A DNA stretch of 64,000 nucleotides from an uncultured Chloroflexia bacterium. Its GTDB lineage: Bacteria > Chloroflexota > Ktedonobacteria > Ktedonobacterales > Ktedonobacteraceae. Below are positions 12,362-63,753 of the stretch, piece after piece (position 1 is the first letter of the stretch; each line of letters starts with the position of its first letter). The stretch covers positions 941,807 to 1,005,806 of the forward strand of contig CAWBTV010000007.1 in the NCBI GenBank assembly GCA_963791835.1, in the 5' to 3' direction. Under the pieces are notes generated by a model. The model did not search any database and was not told the origin of the DNA. It saw only the letters and a list, made by a program, of their open reading frames with translations. Position numbers and translations under genes: made by a program.

Positions 12362-12420
12362 TGCCAAAAAGCTATTGACTCAGCGTACATGTTGTACGCT
12401 GAGTCAATAGCTTTTTGGCA
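12362..12420. terminator. 59-bp perfect palindrome (28-bp arms) downstream of the PLP-enzyme gene
   Basis: tgccaaaaagctattgactcagcgtaca-tgt-tgtacgctgagtcaatagctttttggca. Confidence 0.7.
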
Positions 12421-12550
12421 TACTTCGTTACTTTTTGCTGATCAAACCGATGTATAATACAAAGGAACTATAATCTTTTCTTTCTACTATACTTTTCTAT
12501 TTCTAACTATCTTATTGACCCGTCTATATTCACGAGAGGCTCTTTCTCTA

Positions 12551-14260
12551 ATGATACAGCCCATCTTTCTTTCTACAAAGGGCATACGTCGATTGGTGCC
12601 AACCGCACTCACGATACTACTCTTGGGACTCGTCTTAAGTGCATGTGGTGGCAATGCTCAACTCCAACAACAAGCGACCACAAATAAAGCGTCACTTGAT
12701 ACGGCACTGACGCACGCAAAAGACATTGGTATACCGGACACGATGTTGCAACCCATTGTGCGTCAGGAGATGCAACTGAGTACGACCAATGCACCTGTCA
12801 CCTTGTTTAGCGATCAACCTGCGACGGACTATTATTCCAATCTTTCGCAGCGTTACCATATGCTCGCCATTCAAGTAAATGGCTTGATGACGCAGGCCAC
12901 CCAGCAATTTGATTATCAATCAACACTTGATTTGCAAGCATTCGAGAGTGTACTGGCAAAGCGTCAGGGGCAAGGATTTGTCGAGGCGAAGACATTTGCC
13001 GACCAATTGACCCAGGACCAGAAGTTACAGGCAAAAGCGCAGTATCCCAAAGATTACCTTGCCATTAGCGCAAGCGCGAAAAGTTCAGCACAGGCATTAC
13101 GACTGATGGGACCTGCCTTTGACAAACTCACGACACTGCAAAATACGATCAAGCAATTGCAATCCTCGCATCTCGATGTAACGGCGTTGAACCAGGAATA
13201 TCAGCTTGACGTTCAGCAGTTTCGCACGGCAACGAATTCAGATGGTTTTACACAAATTATTGACCAGTTGAATGCTCAGCTTCAAGAAACAACGACATTC
13301 TCAACGCAAGCCATTCCTTACGTTGGGGCCGCAAAGCTCAAACAACTCGGTAATAGTATTGACCAGATGAAGCAATATGGGCAAGATGTCAGCAGCTTCC
13401 AGAAAATGCTTACGACCGACCAAACAGCATTGAGTACCGCAAAGTCTCTCAGCGATTACCTGAAAGTGTCGGCGCAAATTGACACTGATGTTGCCTCTAT
13501 TCAAACACCGCTTATTAAAGGGCAAGCGAACTATCTCTTGACACAATTCCACCAAGAGGTTACAACGTGGGGCAATGCTCACCTGTATCATAATGCATTT
13601 GATAATAAAAACTACACTCAGGATTATGAATACGATCAGGCTGAGGGTTTCGGCTCCGATGCAGATGTAGCCGTGCAGTCAGCACAAACACCTGACGATT
13701 ATCAAGCCGCGATTGACCTGATTAACAATGACATGATGCATCTCAAAGCGATGGAAGCGGACTTAGCGGATACCACTCCCTGGAGTAAATCACATGCTAC
13801 TGATGTGCAATTGATGCAGCATTATGGCGTTATGACAGGTCCAACGGTTGTCATCTCGCTCATTGAGCAGACACTACGCTTTTATCAGGATGGTCAACTT
13901 GTCAAGGCTTATCAAATCACCTCCGGGCAATTCGATAAGCCATCACCTCCAGGCTTCTGGCATATCTTTGACCGCGAGTCACCTACGAAGTTCAAATCAA
14001 GCGAGCCAAAGGGATCGGCGTTCTGGTATCCAGACACAAAGATCAACTTTGCGATGGAATATCACGATGGCGGCTACTTTCTGCACGATAGCTGGTGGCG
14101 TGTGAACTACGGTGTGGGCACCAATTATCCACACTACGATACAGGTGGTGATGAGTCGTTTGCAGGAACTGGCAGTCACGGCTGTATCAATATGCAAGAA
14201 GATCAGATAGCATGGCTCTATGCCCATACGGGTTACGGCATGGCTGTTGTTATCTACTAA
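12551..14260 (+). CDS. L,D-transpeptidase (YkuD-domain) lipoprotein with long N-terminal domain
   Basis: Lipobox LVLSAC. C-terminal YkuD catalytic motif GTGSHGCINM. Confidence 0.75.
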   Translation: MIQPIFLSTKGIRRLVPTALTILLLGLVLSACGGNAQLQQQATTNKASLDTALTHAKDIGIPDTMLQPIVRQEMQLSTTNAPVTLFSDQPATDYYSNLSQRYHMLAIQVNGLMTQATQQFDYQSTLDLQAFESVLAKRQGQGFVEAKTFADQLTQDQKLQAKAQYPKDYLAISASAKSSAQALRLMGPAFDKLTTLQNTIKQLQSSHLDVTALNQEYQLDVQQFRTATNSDGFTQIIDQLNAQLQETTTFSTQAIPYVGAAKLKQLGNSIDQMKQYGQDVSSFQKMLTTDQTALSTAKSLSDYLKVSAQIDTDVASIQTPLIKGQANYLLTQFHQEVTTWGNAHLYHNAFDNKNYTQDYEYDQAEGFGSDADVAVQSAQTPDDYQAAIDLINNDMMHLKAMEADLADTTPWSKSHATDVQLMQHYGVMTGPTVVISLIEQTLRFYQDGQLVKAYQITSGQFDKPSPPGFWHIFDRESPTKFKSSEPKGSAFWYPDTKINFAMEYHDGGYFLHDSWWRVNYGVGTNYPHYDTGGDESFAGTGSHGCINMQEDQIAWLYAHTGYGMAVVIY

Positions 14261-14267
14261 TTTCCTA

Positions 14268-14321
14268 GAAAACATGGTATTGGTTGGTGCGTGAAGCACG
14301 TCAACCAATACCATGTTTTCT
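14268..14321. terminator. Palindromic terminator (20-bp outer stem plus inner gtgc-gtgaa-gcac hairpin)
   Basis: agaaaacatggtattggttg...caaccaataccatgttttct, directly after the ldt stop. Confidence 0.65.
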
Positions 14322-14332
14322 GTCCTATTGAT

Positions 14333-14362
14333 TTGACATATGAAGCGCATTTCTGCTATAAT
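14333..14362 (+). promoter_or_regulatory. Consensus sigma70 promoter for rpsT (-35 TTGACA, 18-bp spacer, -10 TATAAT) with about 90-nt structured leader
   Basis: TTGACA at 14333-14338 and TATAAT at 14357-14362. The leader contains hairpins ccgacggttcgtcgg and gcccggaacacgggc. Confidence 0.6.
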
Positions 14363-14450
14363 CGTTTGGCACTCAAGACCGACGGTTCGTCGGCATTTTT
14401 ATACAGAAAAGCCCGGAACACGGGCCGATTTCGGGGAGGATTTCTACCAC

Positions 14451-14717
14451 ATGCCCAATAATGCAGCCGCTGAAAAGCGCATGCGCCAGGAACAAACACG
14501 CCGCGCACATAATCGCAGCGTCAAAACGATTGTAAAAACGCAGATCACAAAGGCACGCACCGCCATCACAGCAAAAACAGTCAGTGCGGAAGATGCCGAG
14601 ACGGTAGTACGTGCGGCTGTTAGCGAACTTGATCGCGCCGCCAAAAAAGGTGTTATTCACAAAAACAATGCTGCTCGCCGCAAGTCGCGCTTGATGAAGC
14701 AGCTTAACGCAAAATAG
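14451..14717 (+). CDS. rpsT: 30S ribosomal protein S20
   Basis: MPNNAAAEKRMRQEQTRRAHNRSVKT. RBS GGGGAGGA. The ORF-track ORF is trimmed to this Met. Confidence 0.9.
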   Translation: MPNNAAAEKRMRQEQTRRAHNRSVKTIVKTQITKARTAITAKTVSAEDAETVVRAAVSELDRAAKKGVIHKNNAARRKSRLMKQLNAK

Positions 14718-14789: not shown

Positions 14790-15311
14790 ATGGCTGATAA
14801 AGCTGACAACAAGGTTATCACGAAGCCAGCAGGTCATGCATTGATTGCTGCTGTCGAAAGCGCTCAGTTACGCAAAGATGTTCCAGAGCTTCGTTCCGGT
14901 GATACAGTACGCCTACAAATTAAGGTTGTTGAGGGAACGCGTGAGCGACTCCAGCCATTTGAGGGCGTGGTTATGCGTCTTCGTGGTGGTGGTATGAGCC
15001 AGAATTTCACCGTTCGGCGTATCACGAATGGTGTTGGGGTTGAACGTACATTTCTCATCAACTCTCCCCGTATCGAGAAGATTGAAGTCTTGCGTCATGC
15101 ACGCGTGCGCCGCCAGCAACTGTACTACCTGCGTGGCTTGACGGGTAAAGCGGCTCGCTTGAAGGAACTACGCCCGTTGACAGCAAAGCAGGTTGCCGCG
15201 AAAGAAGCTGCAAGGATTGCGAGAAACGCCGCAGCACCAACGCCAATCGCCAACACAACACCGACAACTGCACCGGTAGTACCAACACCAACAACGAATG
15301 CTGGCGAATAA
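14790..15311 (+). CDS. rplS: 50S ribosomal protein L19 with about 55-aa Ala/Pro/Thr-rich C-terminal extension
   Basis: L19 core [27 protein letters not shown]...[11 protein letters not shown]. Low-complexity tail. Confidence 0.9.
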
Positions 15312-15975
15312 AAAATACTCACCAACATTGGAAGAAGAAATGGCCCTGTATGAACAGGGCCATTCTTGTATCGCTGGCCTCGATGAGGCTGGTCGTGGTT
15401 GTCTTGCTGGTCCTGTCGTCGCGGCAGCTGTCATTCTTCCTCTTGATGCAGATACACTCACACGTTTCGCAGGTGTCAACGACTCAAAACAGTTGACAGC
15501 GCAGACGCGTGAACGCCTCTATGATGTTATTTATCAACATGCGCTTGCCGTTGGTGTCGGCTTTGGCTCTGTCGAACTGATTGACGAACGCAACATTCTA
15601 CAGGCCACAAAACAAGCGATGCGTAACGCCCTCGCACAGCTTTCTCTCGCGCCACAAGCCCTGTTGCTTGACGCCATTCTGCTAAAAGATATCGCCTTAC
15701 CACAACGTTCGCTCATCAAAGGCGACTCACGTAGCCTCTCCATAGCAGCCGCCTCGATTATTGCCAAAGTCACGCGTGACCGCTTCATGCTACAACTGCA
15801 CGAGCAATACCCCCTCTATGGTTTCGCCCAACACAAAGGGTATGGTACTGAGATGCATCTTGCCGCCCTACGCGAACATGGGGTCACGCCACATCATCGC
15901 CGCAGTTTTGCACCCGTTCGGGAGCGTGTGGAGCAGCTGAGTATGTTTGCAGGTGACGGAGATACATCAATTTGA
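15298..15975 (+). CDS. rnhB: Ribonuclease HII
   Basis: [17 protein letters not shown]...DSKQLT. The rplS-rnhB gene order is conserved. Confidence 0.9.
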
Positions 15976-15982: not shown

Positions 15983-16130
15983 AATACGAAACGTCCGTAG
16001 GGGTCTAATTCTATTACACCCTTGTGGCAATGAACAATCTTGGAAGAGAATGAGAATTGTTACAACATCCTCCCAAATTGTATATTGTTTACAGGGTGCA
16101 ATAGAATTAGACCCCTACGGACGTTTCGTA
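15983..16130. mobile_element. MITE-like element, family D with extended terminal repeats (ATACGAAACGTCCGTAGGGGTCTAATTC)
   Basis: Outer 28-nt terminal repeats are perfect reverse complements. The internal sequence is related to D1. Confidence 0.75.
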
Positions 16131-16137
16131 TCCTAAT

Positions 16138-18746: not shown

Positions 18747-18781
18747 ATGAATATTGACAACCAAAAACGGGAATTCTTCTC

Positions 18782-18909
18782 GGTAGGGGCAGCAATTCAT
18801 TGCGCCCAATGATGGGGGCGGCGAGGCAACGTGTCGGCAACGATTCACGCTCCCAACGCGAACCCCTCTCGCCCCCATCATTGGGCGCAATGAATTGCTG
18901 CCCCTACCG
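18782..18909. mobile_element. MITE-like element, family B (GGTAGGGGCAGCAATTCATTGCGCCCAATGATGGGGG terminal repeats)
   Basis: 36-nt terminal inverted repeats. The core cgtgtcggcaacg is shared with the family A interior. Further copies at 60254-60383 and a chimera at 46829-46949. Confidence 0.75.
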
Positions 18910-24055: not shown

Positions 24056-25231
24056 ATGCCACCATTTTCATTTACAATTGACGCCGAATGTCCTGATACA
24101 TGGGCGCGTGCTGGCACCATTCAGACACCACACGGCACGATTTCGACGCCTATCTTTATGCCCGTAGGCACACAGGCAACGGTGAAGAGTGTCGCACCTG
24201 AAGAACTTCATGCAGCCGGGGCGCAAATTATTCTCTCCAATACCTATCACTTAATGCTCCGTCCAGGCTCCGAATTGGTCGCTGATTTTGGTGGTCTCCA
24301 TTCGTTTATGCATTGGGATGGTCCAATTCTGACTGATAGCGGCGGCTTCCAGGTATGGAGTCTGGGCCATTTACGTAAGTTGAGTGAAGATGGCGTGACG
24401 TTTAAATCGCATCTCGATGGTTCAGCCCATACGCTTACACCCGAACGTGTAATGCAGATTGAGGCAGAGCTGGGCGCGGACATCATACTTCCGCTCGACA
24501 TCTGTGCTCCCTACCCATGCGCACCCTTAGAGGCACAGGCCGCGATGGAACGAACGCATCGCTGGGAGGAACGTGCGCTACTTGCCAAAGAACGCTATAA
24601 TCCAGCACAGGCCCTGTTTGGGATTGTACAGGGAGCATTTGAACCTGAGTTACGGAGACAGAGCGCGGAAATCATCGGCAATATGCCTTTTCCGGGTCTC
24701 TCTATTGGTGGGCTTTCTGTTGGAGAACCGAAAGCGATGATGTGGGATATGCTCAATGTCGTCACACCTGCACTACCTCGTAACAAGCCACGTCACCTGC
24801 TCGGTGTTGGTTCACCAGAAGACCTTGTGATAGGTGTCGGGCTAGGTATGGACATGTTTGATTGCGTTCTGCCCACACGCGTTGCCCGACACGGGGGACT
24901 CTTCACGCGTCAGGGTCGTGTTAGTATCAAGGGGGCACGTTTTCGAGCCGAACACAATCCCGTCGAGGTCGGCTGCGATTGCTACACGTGTCGTAACTAT
25001 AGCGCGGCCTACGTCCATCATCTAGCACGTACCGAAGAGCAACTCTATTATCGTCTCGGCAGCATTCACAATATTCGTTTTATGTTGCGTCTCGCGAGTG
25101 AACTACGTGCAGCCATTCTTGCCGGAACCTATACAGCGTTTCGTGATGAGTTCTTAGCAACCTACATGCCCGCATCCGAACAGGTACGCGAGGCGCAACG
25201 CGAAAAATGGAAGATAGCGCGTGGCAGGTAG
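24056..25231 (+). CDS. tgt: Queuine tRNA-ribosyltransferase
   Basis: TPHGTISTPIFMPVGT...LTDSGGFQ...CDCYTCRNYSAAYVHHL (zinc site). The stop TAG lies inside the terminus of MITE A4. Confidence 0.9.
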   Translation: MPPFSFTIDAECPDTWARAGTIQTPHGTISTPIFMPVGTQATVKSVAPEELHAAGAQIILSNTYHLMLRPGSELVADFGGLHSFMHWDGPILTDSGGFQVWSLGHLRKLSEDGVTFKSHLDGSAHTLTPERVMQIEAELGADIILPLDICAPYPCAPLEAQAAMERTHRWEERALLAKERYNPAQALFGIVQGAFEPELRRQSAEIIGNMPFPGLSIGGLSVGEPKAMMWDMLNVVTPALPRNKPRHLLGVGSPEDLVIGVGLGMDMFDCVLPTRVARHGGLFTRQGRVSIKGARFRAEHNPVEVGCDCYTCRNYSAAYVHHLARTEEQLYYRLGSIHNIRFMLRLASELRAAILAGTYTAFRDEFLATYMPASEQVREAQREKWKIARGR

Positions 25232-25330
25232 GGACCGATTTATCACGTCCTGGGGGTGGGGTGGGGCAGCGTGTCGGCGACGATGTGTTTGCCCCACCCC
25301 ACCCCCAGGACGTGATAAATCGGTCCCTAC
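25228..25330. mobile_element. MITE-like element, family A (inner G-rich palindrome); its GTAGGG terminus supplies the tgt stop codon
   Basis: gtagggaccgatttatcacgtcc...ggacgtgataaatcggtccctac. Confidence 0.75.
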
Positions 25331-26274: not shown

Positions 26275-26982
26275 GTGAGCATGTCTATAGACACAGCGCG
26301 GAAAATATTAGAGGCTAGCAAACAACGCGCTAGAGAATTACGTAGTCCTGTTAGTATTGCGATTGTTGACGCCGGAGGCCATCTGGTCCTCTTTGAGCGC
26401 ATGATGTCTCCCTATGGGTGGGCGACCGGAAATATCAGCATCGCGAAGGCAAGCACCGCTGTTATGTTCAATCAGTCCACAGATGCGGTCGCGCAATGGG
26501 GGGCTGGCATCCCTGGTTTTGCTTCAAGCATGGCAACTATGACTGAAGGAAAATTTATTATGGCGGCTGGCGGTTGGCCCATTCGTGCGGCTGGCGCAAC
26601 CATTGGCGGTATCGGTGTGAGCGGCGGCAACGCTCCGGGACGTGATGATGAAATCGCGCGTGCAGGTATCGCGGCGGTTGATGCTCCTGCAATGCAACCA
26701 GTACAAGCACAGCCAGTGCAGCCACCACCCTCGATTGCATCACAATCGTTACCACCCATTTCTCCTATGCGACCAGTGACGCCATCTTCCTACTCGAATG
26801 TGTTGCCACCATATTATCAACAGGCACCGCAACAGGCACAACCAGACAATACGGCAGGTTCACAGAGCGAGTTTTCAGGTCAGCCACACATCACAAAAGA
26901 TATCGTACCCGATCAGGACGATCCTTATAACGATAACGCGTACAATTCATACAACCCAGACCGTTCGGGAGGTCAAGCATGA
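26275..26982 (+). CDS. GlcG/HbpS-like (DUF336) protein with about 100-aa Pro/Gln-rich C-terminal tail
   Basis: DUF336 core (IAIVDAGGHLVLFERM...GGIGVSGG). GTG start with GAAGGAGAA RBS. Confidence 0.6.
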   Translation: MSMSIDTARKILEASKQRARELRSPVSIAIVDAGGHLVLFERMMSPYGWATGNISIAKASTAVMFNQSTDAVAQWGAGIPGFASSMATMTEGKFIMAAGGWPIRAAGATIGGIGVSGGNAPGRDDEIARAGIAAVDAPAMQPVQAQPVQPPPSIASQSLPPISPMRPVTPSSYSNVLPPYYQQAPQQAQPDNTAGSQSEFSGQPHITKDIVPDQDDPYNDNAYNSYNPDRSGGQA

Positions 26983-27791
26983 GTCAAGAATATTCCAGTA
27001 GCAAACGTACAAGACGGACAGCACGCTCACAACGCAACAAGCCTGTTCTTGTCACAGCTTCAAACAACGACACAGATAATGGCGAGATTGAGAACTCTGC
27101 GGTAAGTACTGCAACGATTGCTGAGCCGAAACCGCTTCTCGTTCCCACACCAGAGCCAATTGAGAAGCCAGCACGCAAGTTACCGGGCTTCTTCTCTACG
27201 GTAAAAAAGAGTGAGCAAGACACAACACCAAAAGAGGCAGAGGTTGTACAAGCACGTCTTGCGCGTGCGACGCGAGGCAAGACACCTGTGGAAGCGACTG
27301 GAACGGTTCCTGCCAAAACGAGTAAAAGTCCCGTTGTTGAAGGAAAAAGCGGTACTTCAACTCCTGCGGCCACCAAACCAAAGGGTTTGTTTAAGACGCG
27401 CTACATCATCGGCATGGGCGTGTACCTGATCGCGGCAGATTTTCTAGGGCTATATGAGCAAAAGTTTTTGCAGTATCTTGGCCTGGAAAAAGAATTGACG
27501 CAGTTTAACCTTTTCGGCGGCACGTTGCACGTAAACACATCAACGATTGTGTTTTTGGCATCCCTCGTCATTATTCTTGTTCTTCTCGCACGCTTCGACC
27601 TCATTCCTCGCAGTCTTGGCGGTGCCACCGCCGCACAAAGACGCGCCGGTCAAACACAAACAAAAAACACTGGTACAACCACGACCGGGGAACGGGTTAT
27701 ACCGCCAACGGTGCGTCAAGGCGTCAAAGGCTCCGACGATACACTTTACCAACAGTATCGAACCAGCCAGCGCCGCCAGAAAAAGAGATAA
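26979..27791 (+). CDS. Hypothetical membrane protein with about 130-aa disordered N-terminal region
   Basis: ATGA overlap with the upstream gene. Two TM helices. Basic low-complexity N- and C-termini. Confidence 0.5.
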   Translation: MSQEYSSSKRTRRTARSQRNKPVLVTASNNDTDNGEIENSAVSTATIAEPKPLLVPTPEPIEKPARKLPGFFSTVKKSEQDTTPKEAEVVQARLARATRGKTPVEATGTVPAKTSKSPVVEGKSGTSTPAATKPKGLFKTRYIIGMGVYLIAADFLGLYEQKFLQYLGLEKELTQFNLFGGTLHVNTSTIVFLASLVIILVLLARFDLIPRSLGGATAAQRRAGQTQTKNTGTTTTGERVIPPTVRQGVKGSDDTLYQQYRTSQRRQKKR

Positions 27792-27792
27792 C

Positions 27793-27857
27793 AAAAGAGC
27801 AGAGAGTGTACATTATGTCCTGATTCTCAGGACATAATGTACACTCTCTGCTCTTTT
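27793..27857. terminator. 65-bp perfect palindrome (31-bp arms) one nt after the stop codon
   Basis: aaaagagcagagagtgtacattatgtcctga-ttc-tcaggacataatgtacactctctgctctttt. Confidence 0.7.
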
Positions 27858-28009
27858 GGAAAATTATACTTGACTTATTTGGAGAGGGTCTCTATAATCA
27901 AAATAGAGACCAAAAAAGATATGGTCAAGAAAGCACACGGACTTATAAAAATGCTCAGCTACAAACAACCAGTACAACAGAATAGCTTTTATTATTGGTT
28001 TAGCCCCCC

Positions 28010-29215: not shown

Positions 29216-29241
29216 ACAGGCACGTAAAGCGAGTTCACTAA

Positions 29242-29341
29242 CATGACAGGGGCAAGCCCAGTCACTACTATACACGGAACCGCCTGGCTTCGCCCCACAG
29301 GGGCGAACAGTATAGTAGTGACTGGGCTTGCCCCTGTCATG
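29242..29341. mobile_element. MITE-like element, family C (CATGACAGGGGCAAGCCCAGTCACTACTATAC terminal repeats)
   Basis: 32-nt terminal inverted repeats. Further copies at 50119-50205 and 54480-54578. Confidence 0.75.
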
Positions 29342-29482
29342 TTGGCAACATCGGCTTCAACAGCTTTTACATGTCGATTTTCTCTCGACTCATCTTAAAC
29401 AGTATGATATACTCTGTGTACGTAGAGAGGGATTGTTTGTAATACTTGGTCGGGATAGACCAAAGGCTTTGAGGTGAACACG

Positions 29483-30136: not shown

Positions 30137-30207
30137 TGTAGGGACCGATTTATCGCGTCCTCTTGCGATATCAATTATCGGTGAGGACGCGATAAATCGG
30201 TCCCATT
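30137..30207. mobile_element. MITE-like element, family A
   Basis: gtagggaccgatttatcgcgtcc...ggacgcgataaatcggtccc. Confidence 0.7.
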
Positions 30208-31185: not shown

Positions 31186-31217
31186 CAAGAGAAGACGAGA
31201 GAAAGGTATACACGCTC

Positions 31218-32783: not shown

Positions 32784-32846
32784 CTATCGACGCAATAAAA
32801 TACGCGTGTGCTTTGGCACACGCGTATTTTATTGCGTCGATAGCTA
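32781..32846. terminator. 66-bp perfect palindrome (31-bp arms) running exactly from the TAG stop of the + gene to the CTA (TAG) stop of the convergent - gene
   Basis: tagctatcgacgcaataaaatacgcgtgtgc-tttg-gcacacgcgtattttattgcgtcgatagcta. Confidence 0.8.
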
Positions 32847-40118: not shown

Positions 40119-40149
40119 AATAGGCTATATCATATAAAGGATGCCAAAC

Positions 40150-44494: not shown

Positions 44495-44566
44495 GGACCG
44501 ATGTATCACGTCCTTTCCTTGTCAGCATGTCAATCGCCAAAGAGGACGTGATACATCGGTCCCTAC
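44491..44566. mobile_element. MITE-like element, family A; supplies the psuG stop codon
   Basis: gtagggaccgatgtatcacgtcc...ggacgtgatacatcggtccctac. Confidence 0.7.
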
Positions 44567-44762: not shown

Positions 44763-45152
44763 GTGAATAATCCACTAGAAATACGCAAGGTCATTGGCGG
44801 CGTTCTTCTTACGCTTATCTATGTCTGCTGCTTCTTATTTATCAAATCTTCGTTGGTGATAGACTGGGTGGGAGATGGTAGCGTCACCACAAGCCTCATT
44901 CTATTGGTGGCGGTTATTGGCCTTCTTGTCTTGGTCTTCTATCACATTCTCTATCGGTCCAGTCCAGAAACAACAAAATTAAGCCTGACAGCATCACTGA
45001 CACTCTTGTGGCTCGCGCTGATCATTTTTTATCCATTCCAGCCTCTACAGGCAGGTCAGAATGATGGCTCGGTTGGTTTCTTCGCCCTCATCGGCGGTCT
45101 TGCTGTCTGTGTTCTCTGGGTTCGCTTCTTCTCAGACGAGATTATTGCATAA
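44763..45152 (+). CDS. Hypothetical small membrane protein
   Basis: Four TM helices. GTG start with GAAAGGAG RBS. Confidence 0.5.
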   Translation: MNNPLEIRKVIGGVLLTLIYVCCFLFIKSSLVIDWVGDGSVTTSLILLVAVIGLLVLVFYHILYRSSPETTKLSLTASLTLLWLALIIFYPFQPLQAGQNDGSVGFFALIGGLAVCVLWVRFFSDEIIA

Positions 45153-45214
45153 AAGAATAGAACAACAAAGATGCCAACCGCTCGCGGTTGGCATCTTTGT
45201 TGTTCTATTCTTTT
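45151..45214. terminator. 64-bp perfect palindrome (30-bp arms) bridging the TAA stop of the + gene and the TTA (TAA) stop of purH
   Basis: aaaagaatagaacaacaaagatgccaaccg-ctcg-cggttggcatctttgttgttctattctttt. Confidence 0.8.
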
Positions 45215-46828: not shown

Positions 46829-46949
46829 TAGGGACCGATGTATCGCGTCCAAAGATGGGCAGGGAGGGGTCCGCATTGAAGCGAGAAATCGTTGCCGACA
46901 CGTTGCCTTTCCACCCCATCTTTGGGCGCAATGAATTGCTGCCCCTACC
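46829..46949. mobile_element. Chimeric MITE: family A left terminus joined to family B right terminus
   Basis: gtagggaccgatgtatcgcgtcc...cgttgccgacacg...tgggcgcaatgaattgctgcccctacc. Confidence 0.7.
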
Positions 46950-47324: not shown

Positions 47325-48920
47325 ATGCAAACAGTAACACGTCCACACGTATCGAGTCCAGATAGTCGGCTACCTAAGCCGAGACGAGGCCGACGTTTTT
47401 CACCATTGATGCTCATCGGCATTACCGTGACAGTGCTTGTCGTAGCAGGTGCGGGAGCATTTCTTGTTGTGCAGAAGTTGACGGGTTCACATGCTGCCGC
47501 TGGCGCCGCAGTGAATATGGACTGCACACTCATTGTACCAAATAATCCGCTTACAGCACAGGGCTTAGCCACTCCCTATCAACTTGTTGCCACTGATGCA
47601 AACAACGGACCGTGTAATGAGACAAATGGAAATCAGACAGCGTTTGTCCAGGGAGCGGTCTTCGATACAGAGACAGGTCAGATATCGGCCTACAATCCTC
47701 TTGTTGTTGACAAAGGAACGAAGGCAGCTGTGGCACCCGTCGTACCAACGCTTCCACAAGGGGCAATCGTCGCACTCTGGTTTGGCTTCAATGGCAATAA
47801 CCTGACGCTAAAGGGAAGCGGCAACAGTCTGCGTAGTGGCAAGTGTGTTAACGGGGTGAATGGTTCGATATTTGGGCAGTTTTCGTACTGTAACGCCCCT
47901 GCATTCTTCCAAGCGGCCAAACGCGCAGTCGCGAGTGGACAGCTTGTTCCGCCCGCACTGGGTATTGGCAAAGATGGACAGATATGCCCAACAGTGCGTG
48001 ACTTCTCGGTTGTGGACCAGGATCAGAGCGACAACGTGACAACCGCGTATCTCATCTCAGGAAACAATCAGATTGCTCAATTAACGGCGGCAAATATGGC
48101 TCAGATGCCCACTGCACAAATACTAAAGAATGGTAGTGATAATCGTCTTTTGAGTGTCGCGCTTGATGGTGCTTTAGGGTGTACACCGTGGAAAGTTGCC
48201 GATCTTGCCGACCCCGGTCAGACAGTGACATCACTACCACTCAACGAAATACAAGCGGCAGCATTACAAGCCAAACCAGTCGCAATGGTACCAAACTTTG
48301 ACCCCATGGTTCTTGTCAACAACCAGCGCAATATAAACAAGCTGAACGCGTATCGCGCAGGTGTCAATCAGCCACAAGTAAATAATCCACAGCAGGCGAG
48401 TGGAAGAGCGTATTGCCTCAATCTTATGAATGTTGCGCCCGCACGTCTCGCACTCGACGCACAGTTTACATCAAAATCAGCATCACCGGATGCAGCTGCC
48501 GCGGATAATCTTTTCAACTTCCTGGGTCAGCGTTTCGCCGCTACCTGGACAAACCTCACCTGCCAGCAGTTGACAGGCAAAGCTAGCCCTATCACTGTCA
48601 AGACGGATGCCAACGGCGTTGCCATTGACACGATGATCAATGGTGTCACGATGAATCCACCAGTAGGCAAAGCTTTAAATTGTACCGTTAATGGAACAGT
48701 GATTGCTGGTTGCACAGGTACAACCGTTATCAATGGACAAACATGCTCGTTTGCGATGGATGCAAACACAAATCAGGTCAACATCACCTGTCCAGCGACC
48801 AAGGTTGGTGGTCAACCAGTGGGTCAGCCTACGATAACCAAAACCGAGGTTACAGGGCAACAAGTGCCAACAGACCCGGTTCAAGGTGGTAAGACGCCCA
48901 ATCAGGTCAAAAACCAGTAG
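47325..48920 (+). CDS. Hypothetical secreted/membrane-anchored Cys-containing protein
   Basis: N-terminal TM (LMLIGITVTVLVVAGAGAFLVV). Large extracytoplasmic domain. No recognised family. Confidence 0.5.
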   Translation: MQTVTRPHVSSPDSRLPKPRRGRRFSPLMLIGITVTVLVVAGAGAFLVVQKLTGSHAAAGAAVNMDCTLIVPNNPLTAQGLATPYQLVATDANNGPCNETNGNQTAFVQGAVFDTETGQISAYNPLVVDKGTKAAVAPVVPTLPQGAIVALWFGFNGNNLTLKGSGNSLRSGKCVNGVNGSIFGQFSYCNAPAFFQAAKRAVASGQLVPPALGIGKDGQICPTVRDFSVVDQDQSDNVTTAYLISGNNQIAQLTAANMAQMPTAQILKNGSDNRLLSVALDGALGCTPWKVADLADPGQTVTSLPLNEIQAAALQAKPVAMVPNFDPMVLVNNQRNINKLNAYRAGVNQPQVNNPQQASGRAYCLNLMNVAPARLALDAQFTSKSASPDAAAADNLFNFLGQRFAATWTNLTCQQLTGKASPITVKTDANGVAIDTMINGVTMNPPVGKALNCTVNGTVIAGCTGTTVINGQTCSFAMDANTNQVNITCPATKVGGQPVGQPTITKTEVTGQQVPTDPVQGGKTPNQVKNQ

Positions 48921-48925: not shown

Positions 48926-49000
48926 AAAAGAGAAGAGAAAAGGGTGGGGGCAATGCATGAGAATCTCATGCATTGCCCCCACCCTTTTCTCTTCTCTTTT
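48926..49000. terminator. 75-bp perfect palindrome (36-bp arms) between two convergent stop codons
   Basis: aaaagagaagagaaaagggtgggggcaatgcatgag-aat-ctcatgcattgcccccacccttttctcttctctttt. Confidence 0.8.
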
Positions 49001-50092: not shown

Positions 50093-50118
50093 GTGTAGCA
50101 CTAATTTAAAAGCGGCGG

Positions 50119-50205
50119 CATGACAGGGGCAAGCCCAGTCACTACTATACAACGCTCTGCCACGCGACCCATTGTATAGTAGTGACTGGGCTTGCCCCTG
50201 TCATG
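50119..50205. mobile_element. MITE-like element, family C
   Basis: catgacaggggcaagcccagtcactactatac...gtatagtagtgactgggcttgcccctgtcatg. Confidence 0.75.
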
Positions 50206-50241
50206 CCGAATATACTTCAATGACCTTTAAATCATCCTATA

Positions 50242-51497: not shown

Positions 51498-52673
51498 ATG
51501 AATACACATTCATCAATTTTTGTACACAAAAATATTGGTACTTCACTACGTTTTCTGTTTTCGCTCACTGCTATCGTAATCGCTATGGTAACAGCCTTTG
51601 CCATGCTTGCTAGTGCGCTTCATGCTACAAAGGCGGCATCAAGTTTCCGTGAAATCACTTTACCTTCTTCATATCCGTGGGGTATTGCCTCTGATACAAA
51701 GGGGAATGTATGGGTAGCGGAACCGGGCTGCGATCCGCATCCCTTTGTGTGTAGCAGTACACAGACGGGAAGTATTGCTTTAGTGAATTGTTCCTCGTTC
51801 AGCGTCACCACGAATTTCACGGAACCGTCAGGATTTACTAGCCCATTCTTCCTTATTCTTGATTCATTTGGGCACCTCTGGTTCGCAGAGCCAAATGCCA
51901 ACGCGATTGGCGAATTGATTCCGAACCTGCACAATCCCTCTGCCTCCATATGGCACCAATGGGCTGTTCCAACGTACAATGCTGCTCCATTTCAGGTTGC
52001 ATTTGACAACCGTGGCTTACTCTGGTTCACGGAACCCCAGGCCAATCAGATCGGCTCATTCAACACGACAAAACATACATTCACTGAAACGGCCACACCG
52101 AGTGCTCAAAGCACCCCTTATGGCATCACAGGACCTGATGCAAAGGGTGGCATGTGGTTTACCGAAAATAATTCGGCAGTAGCTCGTGTTGCCAGTTTTG
52201 TACCACCTAAGAAGGGCGCACTTAAAACAGCAGCGATAAGCGAGTATCTCTCGGTCAATCCTAGTGGGGGTACAACGATACACCTCATCACACTTGACCA
52301 TAAGGGTCGCGTCTGGTGGACTGAGGGTTTTGATGGACGAATTGGTAGTCTGACTATCAGTCAGGCAGTGAAGGGAACGTCTAAAGGCGTGCATGAGTAC
52401 TCAATTCCAGCGTGTAACAACTGTGGCACGCACGTCTCTGGTATAGCTGTCGATAATGCAGGAATTGTGTGGTTCGACGACTCGTTAAGAAATTGGGTTG
52501 ACTCTTATAATCCTGCCACCAACACTTTCTCAACTCCATTTCAACTCGCGAACGGAAGTCATCCACATGATGGCTTGATAGTGGCAAGTGACAATAGCGT
52601 CTTCTTTGCCGAAGAGTTTTCGCAGAAACTTGGTCAAATCCCACAAGCCAGTGCAAACAAAAACGAGAAATAA
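51498..52673 (+). CDS. Secreted beta-propeller protein with Vgb (streptogramin-B lyase)-like repeats
   Basis: Signal peptide. Seven repeats of the xWFtE/aE....IGxx pattern (VWVAEPG, LWFAEPNANAIGEL, LWFTEPQANQIGSF, MWFTENN, VWWTEGFDGRIGSL, VWFDDS, VFFAEEFSQKLGQI). Confidence 0.6.
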   Translation: MNTHSSIFVHKNIGTSLRFLFSLTAIVIAMVTAFAMLASALHATKAASSFREITLPSSYPWGIASDTKGNVWVAEPGCDPHPFVCSSTQTGSIALVNCSSFSVTTNFTEPSGFTSPFFLILDSFGHLWFAEPNANAIGELIPNLHNPSASIWHQWAVPTYNAAPFQVAFDNRGLLWFTEPQANQIGSFNTTKHTFTETATPSAQSTPYGITGPDAKGGMWFTENNSAVARVASFVPPKKGALKTAAISEYLSVNPSGGTTIHLITLDHKGRVWWTEGFDGRIGSLTISQAVKGTSKGVHEYSIPACNNCGTHVSGIAVDNAGIVWFDDSLRNWVDSYNPATNTFSTPFQLANGSHPHDGLIVASDNSVFFAEEFSQKLGQIPQASANKNEK

Positions 52674-52684
52674 GCCCTTTTATG

Positions 52685-52749
52685 AAGATAAGAAAATAAT
52701 CGAACAGGAGACCGCAAGGGTCTCCTGTTCGATTATTTTCTTATCTTCT
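52685..52749. repeat. Family E single hairpin (CAGGAGACCGCAAGGGTCTCCTG) embedded in a 65-bp palindrome between convergent genes; terminator-like
   Basis: gaagataagaaaataatcgaacaggagaccgcaagggtctcctgttcgattattttcttatcttc. Confidence 0.7.
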
Positions 52750-52763: not shown

Positions 52764-53516
52764 TTATGTTTTGTTAAACAGCGCGATAGGACGCAAAGGG
52801 GAGCCTGAGCCGCCCTTGATTTTTAGTGGTAGGGCAATGAAGTAGAAGCTTGTCGGAACGTTGGCAAGACCATATAGCCCCTCGATGATAAAGATGCCAT
52901 TGGGCAAAAAATACTTCATATGCCCAAAACCAGATTTTAGTTTCCCGTTGACCTGGGCGATATCACATGCTGCCGTATCGGAACCAACAGCTTTTACACC
53001 GGCTTCGTAGAGAAAACGGCAGGTATCCTCGGCAAGCCCTGGCTCGTTTTGACCCCACCAGTTACGCTCGTGGGGTGCCTTCTTCTCAACATCGACAAGA
53101 TATTTGTCATAGCCAAAATCAATAATCGCGATATCACCCTTCTCAAGCGTGATAGCTGATCTCTGCATGACTTCTTGCACCTTGCTCAACGGCACGAGTT
53201 CACCGGGGGCGTAGTTTTCTTGCGACAAATCAATCTTTTTGGCAACACCTATGAGGGATGTAGCCGGAAAAATATCTATCGTTTGATCGGCTTTATTAGG
53301 CAGCATATGCGCTGGCGCATCAACATGACAGCCACTATGTTCCGGCAAAATCAACGTTTGTAGGAAATAGCCGCTCTGCCCAAAGTTACGCGCGTCTTCG
53401 ATGATCGACACGTCGGGATGTGAGTGCCAGTGGGGCATGTTCGAGTATAACAGAGGCGAAAGATCAACCGCTTCCATACTGCCTAACAAGCTAGCTAATT
53501 CCTGGATTGACGCCAT
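52764..53516 (-). CDS. Cyclase-family protein (kynurenine-formamidase-like metal hydrolase)
   Basis: HxGxHxDxPxH-type motif (SGCHVDAPAHM). Start at MASIQ with a GAGGAG RBS. Confidence 0.65.
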   Translation of the reverse strand: MASIQELASLLGSMEAVDLSPLLYSNMPHWHSHPDVSIIEDARNFGQSGYFLQTLILPEHSGCHVDAPAHMLPNKADQTIDIFPATSLIGVAKKIDLSQENYAPGELVPLSKVQEVMQRSAITLEKGDIAIIDFGYDKYLVDVEKKAPHERNWWGQNEPGLAEDTCRFLYEAGVKAVGSDTAACDIAQVNGKLKSGFGHMKYFLPNGIFIIEGLYGLANVPTSFYFIALPLKIKGGSGSPLRPIALFNKT

Positions 53517-53644
53517 GTTCTTATGCTCCTCTTTGATATTGAAAGAACAATGTTTGTTCTGGAATTGTACAAGTATGGTATCACATGAACGGGCTAAAAG
53601 CGTGCTATGATGTAGCACACACATGTCCGTTGAAGGAGGATGTT

Positions 53645-54454: not shown

Positions 54455-54479
54455 ATTATTATATGAGAGGCAAAAGAGG

Positions 54480-54578
54480 CATGACAGGGGCAAGCCCTGT
54501 CACTACTATACACGGGTGACGCATGGCAGAGCCACGCTGTGAGGTCAGTATAGTAGTGACAGGGCTTGCCCCTGTCGT
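54480..54578. mobile_element. MITE-like element, family C
   Basis: catgacaggggcaagccctgtcactactatac...gtatagtagtgacagggcttgcccctgtcgtg. Confidence 0.75.
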
Positions 54579-54732
54579 GCTGATAATCAAACAAATGTAC
54601 GCGTTAGTTAGAGTCAATGACATGAATTTCATTCCCTGGAAATTCTCGTGTTGACAACAGAAGAACAAAGTAGGTATACTACGATAGTTGGCTAGCCAAT
54701 TAAAAATAAGTTACAATCCAGGAGAACAAACG

Positions 54733-60234: not shown

Positions 60235-60253
60235 CAGGGAACACATGCACATC

Positions 60254-60383
60254 GGTAGGGGCAGCAATTCATTGCGCCCAATGATGGGTTGGGAGGGGTT
60301 CGTGTCGGGTGAAGGAATTGTCGCTGATAGATTGCCCTTCCGCCGCCCCCATCTTTGGGCACAATGAATTGTTGCCCCTACCG
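60254..60383. mobile_element. MITE-like element, family B
   Basis: ggtaggggcagcaattcattgcgcccaatgatggg...cccatctttgggcacaatgaattgttgcccctacc. Confidence 0.75.
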
Positions 60384-61099: not shown

Positions 61100-61717
61100 A
61101 TGGCCTTTGAATTACCACCACTGCCGTATGACTACAACGCATTGGAGCCATACATTGATACTCAAACCATGCAATTGCACCATGACAAACACCATCAAAC
61201 ATACGTGACGAACCTGAACAATGCATTGAAGGATTCCGAGTTCGCTTCATTGCAACCAGAGCAAGTACTGAGCCGCTTGAATGAAGTTCCCGACGCTGTA
61301 CGCGCGGCTGTCCGCAACAACGGCGGTGGTCATGTCAACCACACAATGTTCTGGCAAATCATGAAGCCAAATGGTGGCGGAGAACCAACGGGCGAGATCG
61401 CGAACGCCATTCAGTCTTCTTTTGGCTCGTTTGATGCCTTCAAGACCGCATTCAATGATGCTGGCGTCAAGCAATTTGGTTCTGGCTGGGCATGGGTTAC
61501 ACTTGGTCAGGATGGCAAGCTCCAGATTAGCTCGACTCCAAACCAGGACAGCCCTCTGCTGAATGGCGTCTATCCTATTCTCGGCAATGACGTATGGGAA
61601 CATGCCTATTATCTCAAGTACCAGAACCGTCGTCCAGAGTACCTCAGCAACTGGTGGAACGTCGTTAACTGGGACGAGATCAATAAACGCTACGCGCAGG
61701 CAAAAGGCGCGAAATAA
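61100..61717 (+). CDS. sodA: Fe/Mn superoxide dismutase
   Basis: [25 protein letters not shown]...DVWEHAYYL. Confidence 0.9.
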
Positions 61718-61739
61718 GCGTTTTTATCAACAAAATGTC

Positions 61740-61807
61740 GTAGGGACCACGTTTACGGCGTCCATAGGCAATTAATTGCCTATGGACGCCGTAAACGTGG
61801 TCCCTAT
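61740..61807. mobile_element. MITE-like element, family A variant (GTAGGGACCACGTTTACGGCGTCC termini)
   Basis: Perfect 68-bp palindrome-like element with the same GTAGGGACC...GGTCCCTA ends. Confidence 0.65.
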
Positions 61808-61813
61808 GACATT

Positions 61814-62047
61814 CTATGCTGCGACGTTTATAACAATAGCTTGCGTGTGTTCATGTTCCTCTGGTACTGGCTCACCATCAGCTATAAGAGACTCTATATA
61901 AAGTTGGATAGCCTCTTTTGCCATTACGGTAGTTTCATCGATAGTATCACCCTCTGTAATACATCCAGGCAATGCGGGCACTGTTACTGTATAGCCACCT
62001 TGTTCTTCATCAGGATGAAGTAGTATAGTATAACGGTATTCACTCAT
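61814..62047 (-). CDS. HicB-like (UPF0150) antitoxin-family small protein, no hicA partner seen
   Basis: YTVTVPALPGCITEGDTIDETTVMAKEAIQLYIE. Its start overlaps the stop of the upstream glucosidase gene. Confidence 0.6.
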   Translation of the reverse strand: MSEYRYTILLHPDEEQGGYTVTVPALPGCITEGDTIDETTVMAKEAIQLYIESLIADGEPVPEEHEHTQAIVINVAA

Positions 62048-63654
62048 GTTTTCTCTTCTCCCAACTCAACCAGCAAGCCCTCATTCTCTCGAAGATGTAT
62101 TTCTGATAATGGGATGGGTCCCACGCGGTCTACATATGTAGAGAGCAAGATACGACCTTGACCCTGTTCTGGCAATATCACAGGTTGGTCGTGTGCTGAG
62201 AAGTTGAGGGTTATCAAGCAACGCTGCCCTTCGTATTGGCGCCGGTAAACGAAACAGGAGGTGTTCTCCTGCTCCACGGTTTGATACGAACCAAGCGTAA
62301 GAGCTGGATGAGAACGCCGAATGTCAAGTAAGGCGCGTGTTAACATCAGGAAGGAGCGCGACTCATGTTGCTCAGCCGACACATTGAAGGTCTGGTAGTC
62401 ATGTGCAATGGGCAACCACGGCTGTACCCCATCAGGACAGAAGCCTGCATTAGCACTGGTATCCCATTGCATAGGTGTACGAACGGGATCACGACCAAAC
62501 TCAGGATAGACCTTTCCGCGTGGATCCTGGATCGCCTCTTGCGGCAACTGAACGTCCTGCATACCCAACTCGTCACCATAATAGCAAGTAGGAGTTCCAC
62601 GCAATGTGAGCAACAACATCTGAGTCAGCCTCGCTTGCTTACGTCCCACGCGTGTAGCAATACGTTTTTGATCATGATTACCCAGGACCCAATTAGGCCA
62701 AGCTCCCTGAGGTAGAACTGCTTCATACCTCTCAACGGCCTGACGAACGGTGCTTGCTTCCCAGATTGGCATGTTCACGAAATGGAAATTGAAGGGGAGA
62801 TGGATTTCATCAAGCTGTTTTCCGTAGTATGACATCAAACGCTCAGTTGGTAGGGAGAGTTCGCCAATAAGGACACGTTGACCATAGCTTTCGGTCAAGG
62901 TACGCATTTCCTGCATAATCTCGTGCATTCCTGGTTGATCTACAGCGTAGATTTCGAGCAGACGAGCGTAGAAGGGATCGGTGGGCTGCCACAGAGGATT
63001 TAGCGGATTATCAAGGAAACGCTCGTCTTTGAGAAGCACTTCGAGCGCGTCCACGCGGAAGCCGTCAACGCCTCGGTCGAGCCAGAAGCGCATACCATTC
63101 AACATCGTCTGACGTACATGAGGGTTACGCCAATTCAGATCAGGTTGTTTTCCATCGTACAAGTGTAAGTAGTATTGCTCGGTCCGTGGGTCAAATTGCC
63201 ATGCGGAGCCACCAAATCTGCTTATCCAGTTATTGGGGGGACCGCCATCAGGAGCAGGGGCGCGCCAGATATACCAGTCACGCTTTTCGCTCATGCGACT
63301 GGAACGCGACTCTTGGAACCACGGGTGTTCATCAGAGGTGTGATTAGGGACAAAATCCAGGATGAGCTTGAGGTTACGCCGATGAGCCTGTTGTAATAGA
63401 GTATCCAGGTCCTCAAGAGTTCCGAAGAGTGGATGAACGTTAGTGTAGTTTGTAATATCGTAGCCAAAGTCAGCCATTGGGGACGGATAGATTGGCGAGA
63501 GCCAGATCGCATCAACACCGAGCCAGCACAAGTAATCCAGCTTATGAGTAATGCCAGGAATATCTCCTACTCCATCGCCATTACTATCGAAAAAACTGCG
63601 TGGATAGACCTGATAAACCACTCCCGTTTGCCACCAGAAATGGGGCTGCATCAT
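62044..63654 (-). CDS. GH13 alpha-glucosidase / oligo-1,6-glucosidase
   Basis: QPHFWWQTGVVYQVYPRSFFDSNGDGVGD...GVDAIWLSPIY...GFRVDA...GELS...LGNHD. Start set at MMQPHF (63654) downstream of palindrome 63688-63753. Confidence 0.85.
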   Translation of the reverse strand: MMQPHFWWQTGVVYQVYPRSFFDSNGDGVGDIPGITHKLDYLCWLGVDAIWLSPIYPSPMADFGYDITNYTNVHPLFGTLEDLDTLLQQAHRRNLKLILDFVPNHTSDEHPWFQESRSSRMSEKRDWYIWRAPAPDGGPPNNWISRFGGSAWQFDPRTEQYYLHLYDGKQPDLNWRNPHVRQTMLNGMRFWLDRGVDGFRVDALEVLLKDERFLDNPLNPLWQPTDPFYARLLEIYAVDQPGMHEIMQEMRTLTESYGQRVLIGELSLPTERLMSYYGKQLDEIHLPFNFHFVNMPIWEASTVRQAVERYEAVLPQGAWPNWVLGNHDQKRIATRVGRKQARLTQMLLLTLRGTPTCYYGDELGMQDVQLPQEAIQDPRGKVYPEFGRDPVRTPMQWDTSANAGFCPDGVQPWLPIAHDYQTFNVSAEQHESRSFLMLTRALLDIRRSHPALTLGSYQTVEQENTSCFVYRRQYEGQRCLITLNFSAHDQPVILPEQGQGRILLSTYVDRVGPIPLSEIHLRENEGLLVELGEEKT

Positions 63655-63687
63655 AGGCTGTTTCTCTCTTCCTCGCACAGGATGTTC

Positions 63688-63753
63688 AGCCAATGAGTGT
63701 AAGTAGGCACCCATTTGAGAACTCAAATGGGTGCCTACTTACACTCATTGGCT
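63688..63753. terminator. 66-bp perfect palindrome (32-bp arms) between the permease stop and the glucosidase start
   Basis: agccaatgagtgtaagtaggcacccatttgag-aa-ctcaaatgggtgcctacttacactcattggct. Confidence 0.75.

Follow-up and report, generated by a model that had tools for sequence, protein, structure and literature searches.

The stretch of DNA analysed here, which we call the window, comprises 64,000 nucleotides from an uncultured Chloroflexia bacterium of the family Ktedonobacteraceae (GenBank assembly GCA_963791835.1, contig CAWBTV010000007.1, positions 941,807 to 1,005,806 of the forward strand), and it carries a class of long, perfect palindromes at the ends of its genes. An inverted-repeat scan together with an exhaustive palindrome search of the 64 kb yielded nine perfect palindromes with arms of 28–37 nucleotides (nt) and loops of 0–5 nt, all of them at gene 3′ ends, either at a stop codon or no more than 15 nt from one. 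Genes in the window and in its relatives were called heuristically from open reading frames (ORFs) and a codon score, with Pfam added for the window. The palindromes, including one imperfect member of the class, are the following, with the strands of the neighbouring genes as (+) and (−) and protein lengths in amino acids (aa).

1243–1317: palindrome, arm 36 nt, loop 3 nt; convergent gap between a MerR/TipAS gene (355–1257, +) and an amine oxidase gene (1303–2992, −).
12362–12420: palindrome, arm 28 nt, loop 3 nt, flanked by AAAAAG and CTTTTT; tandem gap, 11 nt past the stop of a gene for a pyridoxal phosphate (PLP) enzyme of Cys/Met metabolism (11091–12350, +).
14268–14321: imperfect hairpin of the class, its outer 19 pairs perfect, its inner part interrupted by a 2-nt bulge; 7 nt past the stop of a YkuD-domain gene (12515–14260, +).
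27792–27858: palindrome, arm 32 nt, loop 3 nt; tandem gap, beginning at the first base past the stop of the gene at 26979–27791 (+).
32780–32847: palindrome, arm 32 nt, loop 4 nt; convergent gap, extending from the TAG of a Band_7 gene (31125–32783, +) to the TAG of a 173-aa gene (32844–33365, −).
45150–45215: palindrome, arm 32 nt, loop 2 nt; convergent gap, extending from the TAA of a 129-aa gene (44763–45152, +) to the TAA of purH (45213–46769, −).
48926–49000: palindrome, arm 37 nt, loop 1 nt; convergent gap, 5 nt from the stop of a 531-aa gene (47325–48920, +) and 3 nt from the stop of rpmA/L27 (49004–49330, −).
52684–52748: palindrome, arm 30 nt, loop 5 nt (GCAAG); convergent gap, 10 nt from the stop of a Vgb-lyase-family gene (51498–52673, +) and 15 nt from the stop of a cyclase gene (52764–53624, −).
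61741–61806: palindrome, arm 33 nt, loop 0 nt; convergent gap between sodA (61100–61717, +) and a HicB-like gene (61814–62047, −).
63688–63753: palindrome, arm 32 nt, loop 2 nt, A/T tracts absent; 14 nt past the stop of a partial minus-strand ORF (63768–64000), upstream neighbour of an alpha-amylase gene.

A preliminary description of this DNA, drawn up from its letters alone, had reported eight or more perfect inverted repeats of this kind. Nine perfect sites do exist, although 14268–14321, which it had counted among them, proved imperfect, and 61741–61806 was missing from its list. It had put the arms at 20–36 nt and the centre at 2–4 nt; at the sites it listed we measured arms of 28–37 nt and loops of 1–5 nt. 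The A-run and T-run outer ends that it described are found at most sites, where the outer 5′ arm is A-rich and the outer 3′ arm T-rich, but not at 63688–63753. The assignment of this last palindrome to a 3′ end is also less secure, the adjoining ORF being partial, unverified and without a Pfam match.

Arm length in the window is distributed bimodally, with nine palindromes having arms of at least 28 nt, none having arms of 16–27 nt and four weaker ones having arms of 13–15 nt. Arms of at least 12 nt never arose in 30 first-order Markov shuffles, which rules out an origin by chance, and the analytic chance expectation for arms of at least 28 nt is ~1e-11. Predicted RNA hairpin energies lie between −48 and −67 kcal/mol (z-scores −13 to −17), and the GC content of the arms is only 36–46%. 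Rfam covariance models gave no match at the gathering score anywhere in the window. The uniqueness of the sequences, from which the preliminary description had argued against a mobile repeat family, held up: the arms of the eight perfect palindromes on its list match only themselves in the ~2.4 Mb of sequence compared. The ninth, 61741–61806, is made of the dispersed TAGGGACC...GGCGTCC repeat family and for this reason would have an origin different from that of the unique palindromes.

Homologs of PurH and MerR place the source of the window in Ktedonobacteraceae, and the sequence collection gave no exact match to its PurH or L27. Relatives of the window were collected in three sets: syntenic loci around purH and rpmA (L081–L088), syntenic loci around the MerR/amine-oxidase pair (L169–L172), and 80 metagenome loci (L089–L168) found by means of the lineage-specific 531-aa protein. 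The closest of them have a PurH 84–92% identical to that of the window and alignable DNA that is ~72–83% identical, while the best relative among the matches listed from a genome-contig scan with PurH was 75% identical. The matches listed from that scan also include 77 loci of unrelated bacteria (1.36 Mb), which served as background. Counting perfect inverted repeats with arms of at least 20 nt and loops of at most 20 nt, we found that the window has 12, the clade contigs (807 kb) have 57 and the unrelated bacteria have 5, or ~7 per 100 kb over ~0.9 Mb of the clade versus 0.4 per 100 kb in the background. Arms in the clade reach 56 nt, their length distribution is flat from 20 to ~37 nt, and palindrome density is lower in the higher-GC members of the group. 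The palindrome class is specific to this Ktedonobacteraceae lineage. In the literature searched, Ktedonobacteria are linked to palindromes only under the topics of CRISPR or insertion sequences (IS).

The position of the palindromes relative to genes is equally consistent. The window has eight convergent gaps of more than 40 nt, and perfect palindromes fill six of them. Those at 32780 and 45150 run exactly from stop to stop, as had been described, and consequently the two genes of each pair end on the same stop codon. The members in tandem gaps adjoin the upstream stop (0, 7, 11 and 14 nt) and lie far from the next start codon. An enrichment at 3′ ends and in convergent gaps had been proposed as a check on the preliminary description, and it holds across 834 kb of the clade, where 70 perfect inverted repeats have arms of at least 20 nt (one contig, L085/L091, being counted twice). 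Of these, 33 occupy convergent gaps (108 available), 27 occupy tandem gaps (250) and 6 occupy divergent gaps (115); a single one is intragenic, and 3 adjoin contig edges. Convergent and tandem gaps together hold 60/70, with the strongest enrichment in convergent gaps. The median palindrome in a convergent gap spans 72% of it, and ~10 touch or nearly touch both stops, while in tandem gaps 12/17 small-loop palindromes lie no more than 20 nt from the upstream stop. We rejected the idea that stop-to-stop boundaries are an artefact of our gene calling, as the same boundaries appear in the relatives with the collection's own gene calls. An enrichment of perfect inverted repeats just past bacterial stop codons is known in general (PMC13155455).

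At orthologous gene ends, the relatives carry palindromes of their own. In the gap between purH and the 129-aa gene, perfect arms measure 32 nt in the window, 16 nt in L081, 18 nt in L082, 37 nt in L085 and 14 nt in L083, and in further relatives 22 nt (L100), 35 nt (L089) and 34 nt (L087); in L111 and in L141 a single internal mismatch interrupts the long arms. The palindromes of the window, L085 and L087 fill this gap exactly from stop to stop, and they are different sequences with a recognisable common A-rich and core pattern. The flanks of L081 and L082 are too diverged to tell which side was copied when the purH palindrome of the window was extended. The same pattern recurs downstream of the rpmA, Vgb-lyase, Band_7, 531-aa and Cys/Met enzyme genes and in the MerR/oxidase gap. 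The orthologs of 48926–49000 have 29-nt arms in L081 and 33-nt arms in L082 and are homologous but diverged, and the ortholog of 12362–12420 in L170 (19687–19746) has 30-nt arms of diverged sequence.

Two observations on assemblies were made at these sites. In L084, long runs of poly-G/poly-C and a stretch of Ns stand in place of the purH/129-aa gap (~6461–6656), an assembly failure falling exactly at the palindrome site of the other relatives. L087 and L088, two assemblies of one metagenome sample, are identical over 18.5 kb save for one base at position 7839. The base belongs to the left arm of the palindrome that follows rpmA: with A the 29-nt arms are perfect, with T there is a T–T mismatch. 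This difference falls exactly within an arm and reflects either polymorphism in the population or a discrepancy of assembly.

How the arms diverge was followed in the left arms of ten ortholog pairs (275 positions) in which both partners are perfect over the arms. These differ by 55 substitutions, of which 30 are transversions, and by 24 insertion/deletion (indel) columns, and since both partners of each pair are perfect, all 79/79 differences are mirrored in the right arm. For the three most securely homologous pairs the figures are 20 substitutions and 6 indel columns over 99 positions, again all mirrored. The preliminary description had suggested an active, gene-conversion-like symmetrisation, and the check it had proposed, co-variation of orthologous arms, bears this out at no fewer than five orthologous gene ends, where the diverged palindromes of the relatives are each perfectly or almost perfectly symmetric. 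Arm divergence amounts to 20–30%, against 13–29% in the alignable, mostly coding DNA of these genome pairs (71–87% identical); being at least as high as that of flanking alignable DNA, it appears to be about neutral, unlike what purifying selection would leave. Among long hairpins of the clade, 63/73 are perfect in a strict scan and 52/88 in a permissive one. Internal mismatches are rare. The strict scan contained 13 of them, 12 being transition-type, and as G–T and A–C mismatches are equally frequent (6 each), the G–U pairs that RNA tolerates are not enriched. The eight unique perfect palindromes of the window have 0 G–T positions in ~260 stem pairs.

Evidence for the direction of copying comes from the MerR/oxidase gap, where the palindrome at 1243–1317 enters coding sequence on both sides. 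Its core stem is GTGTCTACAGGAAATGC, with A6 and T6 flanks, and its arms reach 15 nt into each gene, over the last four codons and the stop, such that both genes end ATG CAG AAC ATC TAA (MQNI and stop; all protein ends below are likewise given up to the stop). Most of the 16 MerR/TipAS relatives compared end ...KAMK-(V/A)(Q/E)(K/Q), with a length of 268 aa, and the amine oxidase ends ...AELISQNT in L169 and ...AELVMQKKT in L170. The window oxidase, ending ...AELVMQNI, falls within the variation of its relatives, and the window MerR ends ...KAMKMQNI. Because this MQNI end is the same 15 nt inverted and the oxidase end is the natural one, the MerR end, VQK in relatives, was overwritten with the oxidase end in reverse complement. 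L171 has 37-nt arms, and both of its genes end AAA TAA (K); there the native ...VEK of the MerR protein is retained and the oxidase has been cut down to ...AELIK. Copying in L171 went in the opposite direction, the oxidase end having been replaced by MerR's AAATAA. In L169 and L170, the left arm begins inside the MerR stop codon and mirrors the last codons of the oxidase. Gene ends have therefore been overwritten by inverted copying in opposite directions in two lineages. Template-switch mutations are expected to leave four-point footprints (PMC8794818, PMC5941160), and those in this gap are of that kind. The single-base arm difference between L087 and L088 agrees with this picture.

The oxidase gene itself offers further observations. 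It harbours a repeat-family element (2355–2482, 42-nt perfect arms, 44-nt spacer) that is translated in frame as ...GRRDQIYRVR...SRDKSPTDAINLVPT..., and L169 has the same insert, likewise translated, in its 564-aa ortholog (10865–12559), which recalls the in-frame palindromic elements of Rickettsia. Because the window gene is frameshifted near 2522–2532 relative to L169, it may be a pseudogene or contain a sequencing error.

Short stems occupy the purH/129-aa gap in higher-GC distant relatives. L001, L002, L116 and L147 have GC stems of 7–9 base pairs (bp) there, preceded by an A run in L001, L002 and L116 and followed by a clear T run in L001, with neither run in L147; in closer relatives this gap holds the perfect arms of 14–37 nt. 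Among A/T-biased palindromes of the clade, 41/58 have an A-rich 5′ arm and a T-rich 3′ arm (p = 0.002). In the window, 7/9 palindromes have T-rich distal 3′ arms, and several contain T tracts inside the paired region together with a GC-rich inner stem. The core embedded at 32780, a 10-bp GC-rich stem ACGCGTGTGC-TTTG-GCACACGCGT followed by ATTTTATT, looks like a canonical bidirectional terminator. At 1243, 32780, 45150, 48926 and 52684, the two convergent genes share one symmetric hairpin, with an A tract to one side of it and a T tract to the other. Given their position, their A/T polarity, the embedded terminator cores and the short terminators at the same site in distant relatives, intrinsic and mostly bidirectional termination is the most likely function. 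The suggestion of symmetrisation is to be qualified accordingly in one respect, in that the palindromes would most probably still be transcription terminators, grown from ordinary ones. The arms at 1243, 32780 and 45150 continue for 10–14 nt past the T tract (14 nt at 32780), and this distal part of the 3′ arm would be absent from the transcript. Rho is encoded in at least one relative of the group (L085). That longer stems merely compensate for lower GC content was rejected, the predicted energies of −48 to −67 kcal/mol being far beyond those of a 7–9-bp terminator stem.

We consider it probable that these palindromes are bidirectional terminators that have been enlarged and homogenised by template switching at the DNA level, with coding constraint setting the limit. 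The process would start from Rho-independent terminator hairpins, mostly bidirectional, at gene ends, and a DNA-level process in this lineage would enlarge them into perfect palindromes of 20–56 bp, one arm and the sequence beyond it serving as template for the inverted re-synthesis of the other arm. The likeliest route would be intrastrand or cross-fork template switching in replication, which is to say quasipalindrome correction; this process is already in the literature (PMC5941160, PMC8794818), a second qualification to the earlier idea. A mutation in one arm would quickly be either erased or copied to the partner, giving a roughly neutral substitution rate per pair and an asymmetry near zero, such that the pair of arms would drift at a roughly neutral rate while the symmetry stays perfect. 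A return switch placed further out would let the palindrome grow, and growth would halt where coding sequence would be damaged. Extension tolerated only until the protein changes would account for palindromes that end at stop codons, and with them for stop-to-stop gaps, common stop codons and the overwriting of a few terminal codons. Copying at the level of DNA is argued for by the neutral drift, the mirrored transversions and indels, the lack of G–T pairs, the symmetry of a distal arm that would not be transcribed, and the reach of the arms into coding sequence. Template switching is established in other organisms as a mechanism that homogenises and expands inverted repeats (PMC5941160, PMC8794818, PMC8604942, PMC7202029). 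Location, symmetry, lineage specificity, mirrored divergence and two-way copying into coding regions are shown by the loci compared; the termination function, the replication-based enzymology, and the reason why the process is so strong in this lineage, we infer.

Several points weigh against this interpretation. A minority of the A/T-biased clade palindromes (17/58) have the opposite polarity, a clear T tract (at least 5 T in a 6-nt window) is found in just 29/60 clade palindromes, and 63688–63753 is without any T tract. In the arm alignments of the window with L171 and of the Band_7 palindrome, homology appears doubtful, and the count of securely mirrored differences is correspondingly smaller. 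Mismatch correction in an extruded cruciform and fold-back repair could be alternative DNA-level routes to template switching. Long perfect palindromes are, moreover, expected to be unstable in organisms with SbcCD.

An explanation at the level of RNA would hold that long perfect stems are favoured in the transcript, for termination strength, antitermination or 3′ exonuclease resistance, or RNase III processing, and that arms co-vary by compensatory mutations. The 3′-end location and terminator polarity agree with this, as do the findings that long stems can resist processive antitermination in Bacillus (PMC10325885) and that, within species, inverted-repeat arms near terminators have fewer single-nucleotide variants (SNVs) than spacers (PMC13155455). 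A stem described as 'extraordinarily long' in the literature, however, has just 15 bp (PMC10325885), and in a stem of −50 to −67 kcal/mol one mismatch should be nearly neutral. Divergence of the arms (20–30% vs ~20% in mostly coding flanks) is not reduced, transversions, for which no G–U intermediate exists, make up over half of the mirrored substitutions, indels are mirrored too, and G–T pairs are absent from the unique palindromes of the window. The symmetry also extends beyond the T tract and reaches coding sequence, where entire codons of convergent genes are duplicated. We therefore regard RNA-level selection alone as unlikely. A different DNA-level route, by mismatch correction in a cruciform or hairpin or by break repair through fold-back priming or hairpin-capped intermediates, could include a lineage-specific hairpin-processing enzyme. 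The same evidence for symmetrisation applies to it, none of which pinpoints the enzymology, and the strong lineage specificity would suit a factor gained or lost. Yet cruciform correction homogenises and hardly explains outward extension into non-complementary flanks and coding sequence, fold-back repair normally gives large inverted duplications and not local replacements of 10–40 nt, and no candidate gene was seen beside the palindromes, which makes such a route rather improbable without being far-fetched.

Insertion of mobile or enzyme-deposited hairpins that target terminators would be another source of palindromes at gene ends, of the miniature inverted-repeat transposable element (MITE), repetitive extragenic palindromic (REP)/RAYT or IS200/IS605 type. 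Dispersed palindromic families are indeed abundant in the window at similar intergenic positions, and 61741–61806 is built from one. Against this stand the uniqueness of the eight listed perfect palindromes in ~2.4 Mb and the lack of common termini, a common loop or a target duplication on inspection by eye, no motif search having been made. The homologous cores at orthologous sites also diverge gradually, which argues for vertical descent and not repeated insertion, and insertion is in our judgement very unlikely. Scarcely credible is an origin in assembly or sequencing artefacts such as chimeric inverted duplications. The break in L084 exactly at the purH palindrome site and the single base inside an arm by which two assemblies of one sample differ would fit it, but the same architecture is found in many independent assemblies (SPAdes, MEGAHIT and long-read-style; ENA, JGI and NCBI), always at gene 3′ ends and orthologous positions. 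Integron attC-like sites were rejected by inspection: the neighbours are not cassettes but ordinary housekeeping genes whose synteny is conserved, no extrahelical bases interrupt the perfect stems, and a common core motif is lacking.

Compared with known systems, the palindromes resemble Rho-independent and bidirectional terminators in lying directly past stops, in being common to convergent genes, in their A-rich 5′ and T-rich 3′ arms and, in several cases, in an inner GC-rich stem followed by a T tract. They differ from ordinary terminators, whose stems average 7–9 bp (PMC10325885), in having perfect arms of 28–37 bp here and up to 56 bp in relatives that run to or into stop codons; in Escherichia coli, all short inverted repeats surveyed have arms <20 bp (PMC5941160). 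Quasipalindrome correction (Ripley model; PMC5941160, PMC8794818, PMC8604942) likewise makes arms perfect, mirrors multi-base and indel differences, expands arms by copying the flank in inverted form and can rewrite coding sequence. Earlier documentation of it concerns rare events or short inverted repeats in statistical excess, whereas here it seems to dominate a whole class of loci in one lineage, filling convergent gaps and keeping ~30-bp stems perfect across ~20% genomic divergence. REP, MITE and Rickettsia palindromic elements (RPE) are also intergenic hairpin-forming palindromes, often at 3′ ends; they are multi-copy with conserved sequence, unlike the palindromes studied here, which are unique and have vertically inherited orthologs. 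The mitochondrial coding palindromes of Nematomorpha (PMC6649704) are long perfect inverted repeats that overlap coding sequence and are kept identical at the DNA level, but those lie inside genes of animal mitochondria and measure up to 284 bp, whereas ours are bacterial terminators that involve the last 1–5 codons. The excess and conservation of perfect inverted repeats in bacteria, concentrated past stops, are already known (PMC5941160, PMC8794818, PMC8604942, PMC13155455, PMC7202029). In the literature we found no bacterial lineage reported to combine routine perfect terminator palindromes of 25–56 bp, stop-to-stop gaps and rewritten gene ends. The best reading of the Ktedonobacteraceae case is an extreme, lineage-specific form of a known process.

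The window also contains at least three families of dispersed repeats, intergenic inverted repeats with 20–60-nt spacers built of the units GTAGGGACCGATTTATCGCGTCC, CGGTAGGGGCAGCAATTCATTGCGCCC and CATGACAGGGGCAAGCCCAGTCACTACTATAC. These families resemble MITE or REP elements and are a phenomenon separate from the unique palindromes. Their members in the window are listed here.

2355–2482: dispersed repeat element.
3847–3972: dispersed repeat element.
7947–8020: dispersed repeat element.
11113–11181: dispersed repeat element.
18781–18909: dispersed repeat element.
25228–25330: dispersed repeat element.
29240–29343: dispersed repeat element.
30141–30204: dispersed repeat element.
40047–40120: dispersed repeat element.
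44491–44566: dispersed repeat element.
46831–46943: dispersed repeat element.
50116–50208: dispersed repeat element.
54479–54580: dispersed repeat element.
60253–60383: dispersed repeat element.

The families also occur in relatives, for example at 15813–15890 of L081 and 7065–7113 of L169. A larger inverted repeat at 15984–16131 fills the convergent gap past the RNase HII gene (15298–15975); its 64-nt arms are 83% complementary, with the outer 32 nt perfect, and a fold of −84 kcal/mol is predicted for it. This inverted repeat consists of GTAGGGGTCTAATTC family sequence; we rejected it as a member of the unique-palindrome class in favour of a repeat-family element. A pentaloop hairpin, GAGACC-GCAAG-GGTCTC, forms the core of the unique palindrome at 52684–52748 and is also found in the repeat-type inverted repeat at 7947–8020, with a similar form, GACACCC-CTTGC-GGGTGTC, in the distant relative L002 (1111–1206). 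It is possible that this motif serves as a small hairpin module, common to these sites, from which larger palindromes start. In the gap past dnaN, L087 (2782–3113) and L088 (2726–3113) differ by a 56-nt change in the copy number of a tandem GGGGCGCAATCAATTGCGC-type repeat.

Among neighbouring features, a perfect sigma-70 consensus promoter (14333–14362; TTGACA, an 18-nt spacer with extended TG, and TATAAT; 12/12 matches) lies 12 nt past the hairpin at 14268–14321 and upstream of rpsT (S20, 14340–14717), an arrangement in which a strong promoter would follow a terminator. The rpsT ATG annotated at 14340 is probably too far upstream, since the S20 domain begins at residue 39. The small HicB-like antitoxin gene at 61814–62047 is directly upstream of the alpha-amylase gene, with a 4-nt overlap, and no HicA partner is evident beside it. 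Several Ser/Thr protein kinase genes are fused to WD40 beta-propellers, in the window (33593–35626) and also in L081, L082 and L087.

Template switching has been proposed as an answer to the old puzzle of how long, perfectly paired RNA/DNA stems originate and are kept up, and the natural evidence for it has until now been mostly a statistical excess of short repeats or rare reconstructed events. Here, dozens of unique 30-bp stems are perfect across ~20% genome divergence and would have grown until coding sequence was met. For specialists in genome evolution and mutagenesis, to whom the finding should be of moderate to high interest, these genomes offer a natural system in which to study rates of conversion versus mutation, the genetic determinants of hairpin-templated mutagenesis and the tolerance of palindromes, and they open the question of what very long terminator stems do to transcription. 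In practical terms, these genomes will cause odd behaviour in terminator predictors, in the annotation of gene ends and in assemblers. It is possible, and we put this forward tentatively, that the lineage carries a heritable change in DNA metabolism, either the loss of a suppressor of hairpin-templated synthesis (such as 3′ exonucleases or SbcCD) or a polymerase or repair activity that favours fold-back copying. If so, such a change would make every terminator hairpin a self-copying, outward-growing palindrome, a lineage-wide mutational drive that would sculpt all 3′ intergenic regions, equalise the stop codons of convergent genes and recurrently rewrite the C-termini of proteins.

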